DNA of 51,974 nt from a bacterium (GCA_005239955.1 SBAW01000024.1:1-51974), one strand, 5' to 3'; shown: positions 8,403 through 34,346, counted from the first letter of the stretch. The notes: generated from the sequence alone by a model not told the origin. Program-made: numbers and translations.

Positions 8403-8490
8403 GTCACGCATCATTTTCTGCTGAAAATGTGCGCGACCCCGCCTCGTCTGCCTTCGCAGACTCCGGCTGCAAAACACTCCGTGTTTTGCC
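8403..8490 (-). repeat. Family B structured element inserted in the outer 5S relic
   Basis: GCAAAACAC-GGA-GTGTTTTGC hairpin, then GCCGGAG-stem-CGAGGCGGGGTCGCG-stem-CGTGAC, the same core as the efp and rpsR copies. Confidence 0.8.
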
Positions 8491-8782
8491 CCCACCGCCA
8501 AACCACCAGATTGAAGCACTGAAAAACAACACACATTATTGCGATTCTCACGTTCCCAAGTGGGATCGGATCATTAGTACTCCTTGGCTAAGCGCGTTAC
8601 CGCGCGTACACCGAGAGCCTATCAACGTCATCATCTCTGACGATCCTTAACGATTCCTCATCTTAGGGTTGGCTTCCCGCTTAGATGCTTTCAGCGGTTA
8701 TCCATTCCCGACTTAGCTACGAGGCGATGCCGTTGGCACGACAGCCCCCACACCAGAGGTCAGTTCATTCCGGTCCTCTCGT

Positions 8783-9605
8783 CACGTACATCCGACTTCG
8801 CTCAGTATCGTGAGCCTGTCGAACGATATCCCCCACTTTCATGGAGCGTAGACTATATCTTCTTCCGTCCGATAGGTATCGGCGAGGAAGGCGGCATCTT
8901 ACCTGTATGAGCCGTCGCTCTCTGTGGAGCGATTCGCCGTCATACAAGTCCGAGTGTCTTTCAACTCAAGTCGTTACGGGGTCAAACCAAGAACCGTAAG
9001 CAGCTCTGGTAGCGTTCTTTTGCGCCTTGTTGCGTAATTCTCATTTTGAATCACGAGCATAAGCGCCGCTAACCGTCTCAGCTGCTTTTCACCTAGCTTT
9101 TTGTGTGGAGATTCAGAAAGAATATGTGCCGCCGTATACAGGGCACGTGCTTGCGCACGTTTAAACCGTATATGCGGCATGAGCATACGGAGTATGTTCC
9201 GTACTTGGGCATGCCCGTTTACTCGGAGCTCGGTCATGCCGTCGTTTCGTCTTGAAACGTAGCCGATACCAAGCACCTTTTGAATCCAATACAACTCTTT
9301 TTCATGCCGAGTATCTTGATAGAAGCAGATCGTAGTCATGAAGCGTCGCTTCAGGGCTCCATCTTTTCGCTTTTTGATTTGGAGCATCAGACTACCATCG
9401 CCATCAAGAAAACCGGCAATGTACGCTAGGGATGTTTTTGGTCGACTTCCCACGGTATTATCGTATCGCTTTTCTGGTCCTCAAGCAAGTCTCTTATCCA
9501 CGGACTAGGGGGATAAAAGACTCTCGGACCAAAACGCGATAGACGACTTCACCGTTATAAGCCGCATTGTCATCGCGCATCTCTGCGCGAAGTAGCAATT
9601 TATTT
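8783..9605 (-). mobile_element. Group I intron in the sarcin-ricin loop (after U2656 equivalent) with a LAGLIDADG ORF
   Basis: Removing 8783-9605 restores CTAGT|ACGAGAGGACC. The 5' exon ends in U and the intron ends in G. R-like CGTAACGACTT and S-like AAGATATAGTC elements are present. Confidence 0.88.
8974..9453 (-). CDS. Intron-encoded single-motif LAGLIDADG homing endonuclease
   Basis: YIAGFLDGDGS motif; 159 aa; lies inside the 23S intron. Confidence 0.92.
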   Translation of the reverse strand: MGSRPKTSLAYIAGFLDGDGSLMLQIKKRKDGALKRRFMTTICFYQDTRHEKELYWIQKVLGIGYVSRRNDGMTELRVNGHAQVRNILRMLMPHIRFKRAQARALYTAAHILSESPHKKLGEKQLRRLAALMLVIQNENYATRRKRTLPELLTVLGLTP

Positions 9606-9668
9606 ACTAGGAACGAATCCCTTCAAGAATCAACGCCTGCAGTAGATAGGAGACCAACCTGTCTCACG

Positions 9669-9984
9669 CATGTTCTCACAGATTGCTCTGTGCATTGGAC
9701 TGTAGCTTTGTCTGCGTACGCAGACATCTGACGTTCAGTCTCTACGGGTCGATTCTTATCACTCGTGGTGAGCGAAGTCGAACCATTCCCTCGGTATAGC
9801 CCTTCGCTTGCGCTCAGGATTCCACCGATATTAGTCAGCTTGTTTGTACTGATGCGCAATGCGCAGAAGTACAACCGCCGTGATGTGATTGGTTTATCTT
9901 TTTGATGACGAAAAAACATTTTTTAACGATAACTCTCTCAATGGGATTCAGACTGTCCTGAAGCGAAACGTATTTCGCTGAAGG
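9669..9984 (-). mobile_element. Group I intron at 23S position 2593 equivalent, with no intact homing endonuclease
   Basis: Removal restores TTCAGACCGT|CGTGAGACAG with U|...G boundaries. P1/IGS pairing TTCAGACCGTCCT with AGGACAGTCTGAA; R-like CGTAGAGACTG and S-like AAGCTACAGTC. Confidence 0.9.
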
Positions 9985-10647
9985 ACGGTCTGAACCCAGC
10001 TCGCGTACCTTTTTAATTGGCGAACAGCCAAACCCTTAGGACCTTCTCCAGCCCCGGGATAAGGTGAGCCGACATCGAGGTGCCGAACTCCGCCGTCGCT
10101 CTGGACGCTTAGGCGGAACTAGCCTGTTATCCCCAGAGTAGCTTTTGTCAGATGGTCTTCCGCCGCGTCTAACGCGTACGGTCGGTTCACTATGTCCTGC
10201 TTTCGCACCTGCTCGGCACTTACGCCTTACAGTCAAGCCCTCTTATGCCATTGCACTATCGGCACGGTTTCCATCCGCGCCTAGAGGACCTTAATGAACT
10301 CCTCCGTTACTTTTTAGGAGGATAGCGCCCCACTAAAACCGCCTGCCAGATACTGTCTCCGCTCGTTTTTGCCGCTCGGGTTAGTGCATACAACTAGAAA
10401 GAATGGTATTTCACTGACGAGTCCATACCAGCCGAAACCGATACTTCAATCTCTCCCATCTATGCTACGCAGTCACGTCGTATACACAATATCAAGCTAC
10501 AGTAAAGCTTCTGGGGTCTTTTCGTCTAACTGCAGGTAACCGGCATCTTCACCGGTACTGTATTTTCACCGGGCTGTTCTCCGAGACAGTCCCCCACTCA
10601 TTACACCATTCGTGCGCGTCGGAACTTACCCGACAAGGTATTTCGCT

Positions 10648-32183: not shown

Positions 32184-32764
32184 AATGATGAATTGTTAGT
32201 AACCTTTCTAAACGCTTCTTTTGCCCGGTGAATGCGGGTCTTAATTGCCCCCACTGATCCCTTTTCTTTTTTGGCGATCTCCGCTTGCGAATAGTTCTCC
32301 AAAAAATGTAGGGCGAGTGCCTTACTCATGTGCTCGGGAATCTTTGAGAGCCCGCGCGCCACGAGATCGCCTACCTCACGCTTCTCTACCTCATCAATGG
32401 TATCGGGGAGGCTCTCATAGAACTCCGTATCAAGTACTACGGTTGCAGTACGATCGCGCTTCTTTTTCTTGTAGTGGGTAAGCGCCGTATTAATGAGGAT
32501 GCGGTACCCCCAGGACTTAAACGTCGCCCCTTCAACCTTTTTAAAGCGCTTCGCATTGAGATAGATCTTCGTGAATGCTTCCTGGACGATGTCTTCCGCC
32601 TCCGCTTCATCCTTAATAATGGAAAGTGCTTTGCGCAAAAACGCATCCTGATAGCGATCAAGGAGGAGCTCAAAATGGCGTGGATCCTCTAGGGAGCCGG
32701 CTAACACCTCTTCATCAGACCGCGTACTTTCCTCCGCGTTCTCCTCGAGTCGTAGATATTCCAT
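32180..32764 (-). CDS. ECF-type RNA polymerase sigma factor
   Basis: AEDIVQEAF, FKSWGYRILIN (region 2); YSQAEIA..GAIKTRIHRAK (region 4). Start at MEYLR. Confidence 0.92.
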   Translation of the reverse strand: MEYLRLEENAEESTRSDEEVLAGSLEDPRHFELLLDRYQDAFLRKALSIIKDEAEAEDIVQEAFTKIYLNAKRFKKVEGATFKSWGYRILINTALTHYKKKKRDRTATVVLDTEFYESLPDTIDEVEKREVGDLVARGLSKIPEHMSKALALHFLENYSQAEIAKKEKGSVGAIKTRIHRAKEAFRKVTNNSSL

Positions 32765-32982
32765 TGCCGCAATCGTAGCTGCCATTCCTCCCCTATGCAA
32801 CTGTAAAGGAACACAAAAGGTTGCAAAACCACTCTGTGTAGGTACAATGCAGCCAGAACTTCCGCGGTTGGATGCAGTTCGCGAAGGCGAGGAACAATAC
32901 CGTCGAGCAATACGTATCTGTATTGTGAGCGGTTTGTAACGATGCCGACAATGAAATGCGCCGACCACGGAAGTTCTTATTT

Positions 32983-33552
32983 ATGCTCCAGTACAATGAA
33001 GCAACATCTGGCAAATACATCATCCAAGACGGAGAGCCCTACGAGGTGCTTTCTTCCCATGTATTTCGCAAGCAACAGCGAAAACCGGTCAATCAGGTAA
33101 AGATGAGGAATCTCATTACGGGAAAAGTTGCTGACCGCTCGTTTCATCACACCGATAAGCTTGAGGAAGCGGAGATCACCACCAAGACCATTAAATATTT
33201 GTATACCAATCGTGGGGAGTCGTGGTTTTGTGAAGAAAACAACCCATCCGCGCGCTTTACTCTCCCCGGGGCGGTTGTGGGCGACGGCGTCCACTACCTT
33301 ACTGGCAATACGCTCATTGAAGCGCTCATTTTTGACGATAAAATCATCAGTGTTCACATACCAGTTAAGGTTGAGCTAAAAGTAAAACAATCCGCTCCTG
33401 CAGTACGGGGTAATACCGCACAAGGCGCGTTTAAAGAAGCGGTTCTTGAAACAGGCGTCACGATTCAAGTCCCTCTTTTCATTAACGAAGGCGACATCAT
33501 TCGCCTCAATACGGACACTGGCCAGTATGTGGAGCGGGTGAGTAAGCTATAG
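32983..33552 (+). CDS. efp: Elongation factor P
   Basis: KMRNLITG, YLY, PAVRGNTA, LETG..IQVPLFINEGD.I..NT.TG.YVER. Confidence 0.95.
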   Translation: MLQYNEATSGKYIIQDGEPYEVLSSHVFRKQQRKPVNQVKMRNLITGKVADRSFHHTDKLEEAEITTKTIKYLYTNRGESWFCEENNPSARFTLPGAVVGDGVHYLTGNTLIEALIFDDKIISVHIPVKVELKVKQSAPAVRGNTAQGAFKEAVLETGVTIQVPLFINEGDIIRLNTDTGQYVERVSKL

Positions 33553-33687
33553 AAGCACACTGCTGTGCTTCTATAGCTATACGAACCGGCCGGAGACATG
33601 TTTTTGCAGCAGCAAAAAACAGTCGAGGCGGGGTCGCGGAATTTTGTGAGCTGGCGAGCAAAATATCCGTGACTAGAGAAGTCGTGA
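33538..33687 (+). repeat. Family B element at the efp 3' end
   Basis: The stop region pairs with an antisense segment (AGCTATAGAAGCAC/GTGCTTCTATAGCT). Core GGCCGGAG...CGAGGCGGGGTCGCG...CGTGAC is followed by TAGAGAAGTCGTGA. Confidence 0.8.
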
Positions 33688-34136
33688 TGCTCCGCTTTCA
33701 GGATCTCTTCACCTGCTGGAGGTATAGTGTCTTTGGTACGTCACGGCTCGTCTAGGGAGGACCGCGCTGAAGGGCCCGCCGCAGAATGTGTCAAAACACA
33801 CGCGGCGGCCCTTTTTTATTCATTGCATAACTTCCTCGCATGCTTTCTATGAAACGCTATGCTTATGCAACAAACTGGCTTTGTGAGACGCCCCCGCAAA
33901 GTCGGCAACGGGCTTCACCAAAGCCCACCTGAGAGCCGTTTGCTTCTGTGGGAGGAGAAACGGCCCTCTTTCTTTTAGTAGTTATCCCCACGTACGCCCG
34001 AGGCCGGTAGGTATTCCTGCTATGTTGGCGTTATAGGCTCAGCCGTCCCGACTCCTCCCTCTCCTCCCGGGAGTCGCGGAACTGGCCACCACTCGTCCTG
34101 CGGCAGGACGAATAGTGGTGGCCACTTTGTTTATGG

Positions 34137-34346
34137 TTAACGTTGAACGTAAGGCAAAAGCCCACATGTCGGCCCGCGGCAAGCGGGCCACACGCAGGCC
34201 CCGCCTCGCGATCCCAAGCGCCGTCGCGCTTGGGGCCCTCGCTCCGGCCGCTCTTGCCTTTCAAACGCTGCGCGTTCTCCAGGAAATCAAAAGCCCGGCG
34301 AATGCCGGGCTTTTGGTATTTATCTTTGAACGTAAGGCAAGAGCCC
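34137..34346 (-). repeat. Family B element with a duplicated rpsR 3' end
   Basis: GLLPYVQR* is encoded at both 34320-34346 and 34137-34163. Antisense segment at 34250-34265; core GGCCGGAG...CGAGGCGGGG. Confidence 0.88.

Follow-up and report, generated by a model that had tools for sequence, protein, structure and literature searches.

Tiny groundwater bacteria carry a previously undescribed multi-copy family of structured elements, without open reading frames, behind their tRNA, tmRNA and translation genes

Described systems and a new element family

The T-loop and the 3' terminus of transfer RNA (tRNA) genes are the classical crossover sublocations of the genomic islands that use these genes as targets. 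Integron cassettes with their attC sites follow a layout in which a target-like core site, the cargo, an inverse core site, a structured single-strand region and the core site of the crossover succeed each other, and in mobile systems guided by RNA, such as the IS110 bridge RNA or the group I and group II introns, the element carries a segment complementary to its target beside a conserved structured RNA. With regard to the outcome of insertion, islands in tRNA genes leave a regenerated target and a displaced fragment of the original, as the available part of PMC4383910 describes it. REPIN elements and their RAYT partners are described in PMC3337134 (available in part), and theta ribozymes, minimal representatives of the hepatitis delta virus (HDV)-like type, adjoin phage tRNAs and have been proposed to act at the tRNA 3' end, according to the accessible part of PMC10879173. 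In the present study, we analyzed a stretch of 51,974 nucleotides of bacterial DNA (GCA_005239955.1, SBAW01000024.1:1-51974; hereafter the window), for which an initial annotation had proposed four short structured elements, in the genes rplL, efp and rpsR and in a 5S-like relic. These elements belong to a previously undescribed multi-copy family of structured elements without open reading frame (ORF), which stands behind the tRNA, transfer-messenger RNA (tmRNA) and translation genes of tiny groundwater bacteria. A covariance model (R1), built from 12 copies of the source genome with a hand-drawn structure (109 positions, 26 pairs), recovered all four with E-values from 1.4e-16 to 1.6e-8.

All copies examined are co-oriented with the gene upstream, as had been noted for the four in the window. 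A tRNA or tmRNA gene on the same strand ends at most 400 nt upstream in 58 of 83 copies; these mostly lie 16-79 nt behind the gene or form the second or third unit of a tandem array, and several of the remaining copies are found behind tRNA-like ends missed by ARAGORN or at contig ends. In the source genome (G000; 716 kb in 56 contigs), on which the whole-genome analysis was done, 14 copies stand behind tRNA or tmRNA genes (about 14 of 37 such genes carry the element), six behind protein genes, namely rplL, efp (EF-P), rpsR (S18), the S9 gene (rpsI), topA and an unnamed ORF (Pfam assignments), and the remaining one in the 23S-5S spacer. The near-complete relative G006, with a 754-kb chromosome and 34 R1 matches, has 20 tRNA/tmRNA genes that are each followed by one to three units, and the 3' end of dnaJ is another recurrent site in relatives. 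Of the essential translation genes proposed as targets, rplL, efp and rpsR are each followed by a copy, but the main targets are tRNA and tmRNA genes, of which the window contains none.

The core is immediately preceded by the antisense arm, which is the reverse complement of the upstream gene's 3' end, and immediately followed by X, a second direct copy of that gene end; the gene-proximal version is called X'. The repeat score between flank and upstream gene is at least 11 in 35 of 80 copies and at least 15 in 26 of them, compared to 0 of 80 with shuffled flanks. The identity of X' and X does not go beyond the last base of the tRNA or of the stop codon, where it ends precisely, and the first base of X is C in 69 of 81 copies (CA 35, CG 32). 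Two classes of sites exist at tRNA genes. In class 1, X reaches from the third T-loop base to the discriminator base (17-26 nt), and a hairpin whose four-base loop is conserved often interrupts the antisense copy, which extends two bases beyond X on the upstream side. In class 2, as read by eye, X starts directly after the discriminator base, and the antisense arm pairs with the last tRNA bases and the trailer, thereby lengthening a terminator-like hairpin. Where tRNA genes of the source genome are free of the element, an antisense copy of the gene end is missing as well, and chance matches are no longer than 4-7 nt. Several statements on single loci, here and below, are based on the reading of printed sequence by eye.

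The requested covariance search of the genome and its relatives revealed 21 copies in the source genome. Of 61 genomes from its order, the source genome counted, 47 gave R1 matches, with 0-31 copies per genome. R1 found no element in the other 14 genomes; the genus sampled best is represented by 29 genomes, of which 21 have the element and 8 have none. In the wider phylum, an even sample of 150 other genomes, scored with strict filters and 25 candidates per genome, gave R1 matches in 6, one of the same order and five from other classes. Contigs of named genomes and viral contigs were scanned with a degenerate pattern of 17 bases, which is too GC-rich and unspecific. Among the 80 loci listed for the named genomes, 13 R1 matches fell within 9 loci, eight of them from Patescibacteria (Saccharibacteria, Nomurabacteria, Kaiserbacteria and unclassified); the ninth, L277, is marginal (E 0.0026). 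Where such a match is preceded by a called tRNA or a tRNA-like 3' end, its architecture is the same by eye, and at two loci no tRNA is apparent. The 80 listed of 120 viral pattern stretches contained no convincing R1 match and one marginal one (E 0.006). The unpublished genome G007 contributes one locus (L056) and one row in the per-genome counts, and no conclusion depends on it.

The view that no named family has this layout agrees with Rfam 15: at gathering threshold, 23S and 5S are the only matches in the whole window, and in E-value mode, applied to 33300-34600 and three tRNA-linked loci, the cores were unmatched, the best matches there being of terminator type or tRNA and off the cores. 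Furthermore, the Rfam models for hammerhead, HDV, twister, pistol and hatchet ribozymes did not match the element, and it is not described in the searched literature, a search whose reach ended at supplementary files; the guide-RNA system of the candidate phyla radiation, as presented in the available part of PMC12045711, is distinct from it, and PMC6851277 has no bearing on it. Whatever its mechanism, the structured-RNA-like family is large and so far unannotated, and it counts several hundred copies in 61 genomes. It muddles the annotation of tRNA fragments and terminators in Patescibacteria and merits an Rfam entry.

Compared to the systems introduced above, the element resembles tRNA and tmRNA genomic islands in that the sequence of the element both divides and restores the target, tmRNA included, the other end is recognizable by the displaced fragment, and the identity stops at the gene's 3' end; the direct repeats scored above correspond to those at both ends of an island. 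Unlike such islands, the units of 130-250 bp are ORF-less and have no integrase inside (the tRNA-Ser locus of genome G027 is the sole exception), contain an inverted target copy and a conserved strand-specific three-way-junction core, and occupy many tRNAs per genome (20 in G006) and also protein-gene 3' ends. The element resembles attC sites and their cassettes in its layout and its tandem arrays and presumably also in the recognition by fold rather than sequence. However, attC core sites are constant whereas the arms vary by locus, attC is a single imperfect hairpin instead of a three-way junction, and the 'cargo' would be only a gene end with a terminator; no integron integrase was identified, the tyrosine recombinases (1-3 per genome) being untyped. 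Repetitive extragenic palindromic (REP) sequences and REPINs are likewise short, structured, non-coding and multi-copy, sit at gene 3' ends, are oriented with transcription and are presumed to be mobilized in trans, and genes of the Y1 type occur here as well. But REPs are simple palindromes of 20-40 nt without target-derived arms or target duplication, and in our genomes Y1 correlates only weakly with the three-way-junction element.

Theta ribozymes are similar as small structured RNAs directly 3' of tRNA genes, but the element has neither the HDV-like nested double pseudoknot nor an HDV-type match in Rfam, begins 16-79 nt after the tRNA, has target-copy arms and also follows protein genes. 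The guide-RNA mobile systems share the target-complementary segment next to a conserved structured RNA. They differ in that all their copies have one common target, whereas each element locus has its own; moreover, the arms of the element are without sign of RNA-level selection, and introns of group I or II are much larger than its core. A screen of 5 high-copy genomes detected neither the DEDD domain of IS110 (PF01548; 0 of 5) nor, with regard to the omega-RNA of IS200-605, the TnpB domain (PF07282; 0 of 5). The reverse transcriptase domain PF00078 of group II introns, retrons and diversity-generating retroelements is unrelated to element load, and the functional X of a self-splicing intron is not found in tRNA loci.

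Core fold, gene-end copies and changing arms

The core of about 85 nt folds as a three-way junction. It consists of a 3-bp helix, a GGA/GA internal loop and a variable hairpin (together P2), a run of three Gs and a longer hairpin, P3, whose closing stem covaries and holds a conserved G.U pair (71 of 81 copies) and whose tip usually has a second tandem-GA motif. The common core layout with a covarying closing stem, seen initially on four copies, was confirmed on 83 model-aligned copies (81 distinct) from 33 genomes, in which 90.5% of the paired cells are filled by pairs compared to 31-40% after a shift of the partners by 1-3 columns, both sides have changed in 25 of 26 pairs, and the observed covariation values were reached by 0 of 500 shuffles, in an alignment that was fitted to R1 and hence favours the structure, with kin copies that are not independent. 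P2 and P3 contain 121 G.U versus 10 A.C (50 versus 10 without the conserved G.U column), and because of this excess the fold belongs to the sense strand only; the closing helix P1 has 38 of each. Judged by its pairing, the core fold is that of RNA or of sense-strand single-stranded DNA and not a double-stranded palindrome. The two conserved GA-type motifs might be compared with those of kink-turn and box C/D RNAs; the domains L7Ae (PF01248) and Nop (PF01798) were each present in 0 of 5 high-copy genomes. An HDV-like fold was tried by hand and rejected, because the few Gs that separate P2 from P3 could not provide a full P1 strand.

At tRNA loci where the two gene-end copies differ, X' retains the acceptor and T stems, and X has stem-breaking mismatches, deletions or truncation (e.g. 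C21a, L035, L039 and L047). The intact X', the decaying X and the identity that stops at the gene end fit the early proposal that the element enters harmlessly by supplying a replacement 3' end. In the protein genes of the source genome, X stays in frame to the stop codon and differs from X' almost only synonymously; the topA X of 24 codons, for example, has 21 identical residues, about 17 third-position differences and its own terminator behind it. Such synonymous saturation with kept residues resembles, at the codon level, orthologous gene ends of different lineages, which suggests that X' arrived with the element from another lineage. Alternatively, the protein-gene X may be under continued selection.

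Filled and empty sites occur side by side among relatives: the element stands at the 3' end of dnaJ in 5 of 26 congeneric loci, and the nearest relatives of one filled genome are empty. At rplL, 2 of 29 loci are filled, in two different families. Tandem arrays of 2-3 units are common, and the closest neighbour of a core frequently belongs to another tRNA of the same genome. In G006, two-unit arrays at tRNA-Val and at another tRNA are ~98% identical over their cores, and the 8-nt arms of both units are swapped to the complement of the local tRNA end. The flank of the T-loop-type copy at tRNA-Gln of genome G013 was found in only 2 other genomes of 41, there away from tRNA.

The pairing of the arms shows 18 G.U versus 22 A.C against X' and 28 versus 22 against X. 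Without a wobble excess, the arms are to be regarded as DNA-level copies of the local target and not as RNA-selected helices. Hence, the idea that the antisense arm serves as an internal guide at the RNA level, which the initial annotation had put forward, is doubtful, since the excess is present in the core and missing in the arms. The arm rewriting could be a templated correction of the long quasi-palindrome formed by X', hairpin and arm, or a copying step of the insertion.

Mode of spread and competing explanations

With a probability of roughly one half, we regard the copies as a non-autonomous integrative mini-element family of Patescibacteria that acts through a single-stranded folded form. 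This reading is favoured by the patchy copies, the tandem arrays, the arm swaps and the regenerated target with its displaced fragment. It builds on direct observation with regard to the anatomy, the strand-specific core, the preference for certain targets, the duplicated gene ends with a decaying X, the patchy distribution in multiple copies and tandem arrays, and the local-target arms. The unit, a 'mini-island' of ~130-250 bp, would bring a replacement gene 3' end (X') that extends precisely up to the last base of the tRNA or to the stop codon, one or two hairpins of terminator-like appearance, the arm as an inverted copy of the target and the ~85-nt three-way-junction core, which would act as single strand (RNA or sense-strand DNA). 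It would be placed immediately 5' of a C-purine dinucleotide, in tRNA/tmRNA genes in the T-loop or directly behind the discriminator base, in housekeeping protein genes a few to 75 nt before the stop codon, and the original 3' end (X) would be displaced behind the core and decay there. Insertion would be a DNA recombination at the core/X junction, the helix of antisense arm and X' in a free, perhaps circular form could be the attachment site in the manner of integron attC, and the enzyme would act in trans. If the copies are such mini-islands, they would be the smallest known integrative elements that still repair their target gene, and would show how ultra-small symbionts with ~0.7 Mb cope with insertions by the dozen, which occupy half of their tRNA genes.

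Several observations weigh against this interpretation, above all the search for an enzyme. The element was correctly described as ORF-less and without a cognate enzyme nearby, but the reverse transcriptase, recombinase or Y1-type partner sought in relatives showed no convincing link to it, and among the families tested by per-genome domain counts none co-varies with the element. Reverse transcriptase (PF00078) was not found in the source genome and G006 and occurs in 19 of 61 genomes irrespective of element load, with 5 matches in the element-free G030; IS110 and TnpB were not found in the five high-copy genomes, as stated above. Tyrosine recombinases are few (G012 and G035 have one each), and the Y1 transposase-like domain, found in 37 of 61 genomes, is present in 31 of 47 with the element versus 6 of 14 without it and absent from G035 with its 17 copies. 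The large serine recombinase domain occurs in 42 of 61 genomes, 32 of 47 with the element versus 10 of 14 without it, but was not found in the source genome, and a core lies within 1.5 kb at only 1 of 32 recombinase loci, so that this link is not general. Moreover, locus-specific arms beside ~98% identical cores are unexplained by a fixed attachment site; they need templated re-copying from the local gene or a guide mechanism. The terminator-like hairpins precede the core and leave its transcription hard to explain. In genome G048, the rplL-type copies form a tandem array 75 nt behind an intact rplL and are not fused to it. Finally, the contigs inspected in this respect, from two DNA runs of a groundwater sample that may be the source and one more run of that study, showed no free form, empty-site read or junction. 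One of these contigs spans 18000-35302 with three elements and has no joint at them, a result that neither favours nor excludes excision.

The strand-specific covariation of the core, its conserved G.U (71 of 81) and the two tandem-GA motifs are also what one would expect from a cis-acting RNA domain, i.e. a small ribozyme or protein-binding RNA that the antisense arm docks on the 3' end of the upstream transcript. It would form, process, protect or terminate that 3' end like the ribozymes adjacent to phage tRNAs, for which self-cleaving examples give a precedent (PMC10879173, available part). The co-orientation with the upstream gene (58 of 83 copies behind same-strand tRNA/tmRNA; rplL, efp and rpsR in sense), the arms, which fit the local gene also when the unit comes second in a tandem pair, and the short-spacer class, in which the core/X junction is the exact mature tRNA 3' end (three G006 loci, by eye), point in the same direction. 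Nevertheless, we consider this explanation rather unlikely, as the other site class lies in the T-loop, where cleavage would destroy the tRNA, the arms without wobble excess are not kept by RNA selection, terminator-like hairpins stand ahead of the core and the displaced X would be left without a role; furthermore, most tRNA genes of the source genome and 14 of 61 genomes do without the element, which makes it dispensable for tRNA maturation. Slightly less probable still is a core that represents a new small catalytic or guide RNA, reading the 3' ends of tRNA, tmRNA and abundant mRNA via a re-writable antisense arm and exchanging strands at the core/target junction, for example by a cleavage-ligation that may swap 3' ends or yield a circular form. 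If true, this would be a programmable mobile RNA/DNA element, protein-independent or dependent on host enzymes, of a class not described before. In any case, locus-specific arms imply templated arm copying or programmable recognition; either would be a new recombination principle with a possible use in targeted insertion.

Another origin of the copies would be larger recombinase islands in tRNA genes that lost their interior, so that the small copies themselves are immobile and the core is a small RNA gene or the arm-site region at the far end of the island. The regenerated target with its displaced fragment is the signature of tRNA-gene islands (PMC4383910, as far as the available part goes), and 18 of 31 large serine recombinase loci have a tRNA gene within 1.5 kb, often convergent. 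In addition, the tRNA-Ser gene of G027 is followed by units of 6.0 and 3.5 kb beside three large serine recombinase genes; the last 191 nt of both units, composed of arm, core and displaced tRNA-Ser 3' copy, are identical, and each has a large serine recombinase gene adjoining a copy of the tRNA-Ser end. Here, X' and arm-core-X stand kilobases apart, as in a true island. However, the 754-kb chromosome of G006 contains 34 separate small copies with no full island adjoining, the small unit alone forms tandem arrays, recombinase loci with a nearby core are as rare as mentioned, and element-free genomes are rich in these recombinases (13 in G030). To our knowledge, serine recombinases neither need nor create 20-nt identities, and we judge this origin improbable.

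The weakest case is that for a mini-intron or switch, as considered in the initial annotation, in which X' through core would be removed from the RNA and the gene body joined to X. It is true that X keeps frame, residues and stop codon in three protein genes of the source genome, and that a join at the topA junction would be in frame. But for tRNAs such a removal is ruled out by the stem-breaking mutations, deletions or truncation of X next to an intact X', which is contiguous with the gene and makes splicing unnecessary; the efp copy has no demonstrable X, and the self-splicing introns known to us are far larger than an 85-nt core.

Copies of the window and neighbouring observations

The duplication of X' and X proposed for all four copies of the window is clear for rpsR, evident at the codon level for rplL and unsupported for efp, and the 5S-like relic itself is weak. 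The rpsR ORF (34320-34556, minus strand; Pfam Ribosomal_S18, E 1.3e-21) ends in X' at 34320-34343, which represents the working last seven codons and the stop. It is followed on the same strand by the terminator-like hairpin hp1 of 14 pairs (34286-34317), also caught by weak terminator-type Rfam matches, which lies between X' and the antisense arm. Arm and core extend over 34148-34268, with the arm at about 34249-34268, and the R1 match itself spans 34148-34259 (46.7 bits, E 1.6e-8); within it lie P2 (34203-34248), the G-run (34200-34202), P3 (34160-34199) and the start of the 3' flank (34148-34159). The displaced second 3' end, X, at 34137-34157 is identical to X' in 19 of 21 nt and has the same six residues and stop with one arginine codon switched; the repeat score of 34 was reached by 0 of 300 shuffles.

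At rplL (ORF 19171-19569, minus strand), X' comprises the last five codons and the stop (19171-19188), and the core lies at 19042-19156 (R1 79.6 bits, E 1.4e-16), divided into 5' arm (19149-19156), P2 (19100-19145), G-run (19097-19099) and P3 (19054-19096). This copy is more divergent, as its antisense arm overlaps the first P2 bases. Its X (19036-19053) encodes the same five residues and stop in frame a second time, differs from X' by five synonymous changes and precedes a terminator-like hairpin; the nucleotide score of X' and X is not above that of shuffles (133 of 300 reach it), so the repeat is evident at the codon level only.

On the plus strand, the efp copy begins with a terminator-like hairpin with the conserved four-base loop, read from the sequence at 33548-33577 (ends approximate), whose 5' strand includes the efp stop codon (33550-33552); relatives show hairpins of this type with variable stem and conserved loop. 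The core at 33578-33685 (R1 76.6 bits, E 7.9e-16) is divided by alignment A4 into 5' arm (33578-33585), linker (33586-33588), P2 (33589-33629), G-run (33630-33632), P3 (33633-33673) and 3' flank (33674-33685). A repeat of X' and X is unsupported here, 279 of 300 shuffles reaching the score, and the hairpin is the element's own conserved-loop hairpin. The copy in the 23S-5S spacer (8400-8489, minus strand; R1 match 8400-8478, 50.8 bits, E 1.6e-9) consists of an upstream hairpin (about 8469-8489), P2 (8441-8467), G-run (8438-8440) and P3 (8403-8437), with no 3' arm aligned; its 5S-like upstream stretch scores 28 compared to a shuffle maximum of 33.

Some further observations concern tRNA ends and recombinases. 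On contig C38 of the source genome (10913-11067), ARAGORN calls two tRNA-Arg(ccg) genes 10 nt apart, the second of which has no obvious 5' acceptor strand (by eye), carries an element copy and may be a pseudo-tRNA. Orphan fragments resembling tRNA 3' ends (T-arm and acceptor strand), without a core, sit 20-40 nt behind tRNA-Ala(tgc) and tRNA-Gly(ccc) on contigs C14 (about 8885-8945) and C41 (about 11074-11130); they may be relics of lost insertions. A 230-aa Y1 homologue (IS200-like/RAYT-like) is encoded on contig C32 of the source genome (43568-44257; L357 1273-1962) between the L2 and S19 genes, i.e. inside the ribosomal protein operon; members of its family were seen in 37 of 61 relatives, the number per genome being 0-6. 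In the relatives G001-G060, large serine recombinases are unusually numerous for genomes of 0.5-0.9 Mb, with up to 13 in G030. The G027 region (C1:231000-246000; L397) has three different genes of this kind in tandem units behind one tRNA-Ser gene, and a 240-nt inverted repeat (about 9023-9261 and 10483-10722 of L397) surrounds an ORF with a peptidoglycan-binding domain, a segment that may be invertible.

In the window itself, the 23S gene on the minus strand (8520-13376) seems to be interrupted by at least one intron-like insertion. Its Rfam match (9908-13376) covers 3469 nt on a model of 2925 positions, sequence resembling the 23S 3'-terminal region follows further on at about 8520-8700, and an ORF for a LAGLIDADG endonuclease (8974-9453; Pfam E 2.6e-9) is situated between the two. 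The contig of the possible source sample departs from the window at 30036-30132, where five positions clustered within about 100 nt are different, which possibly reflects strain variation or a consensus difference.

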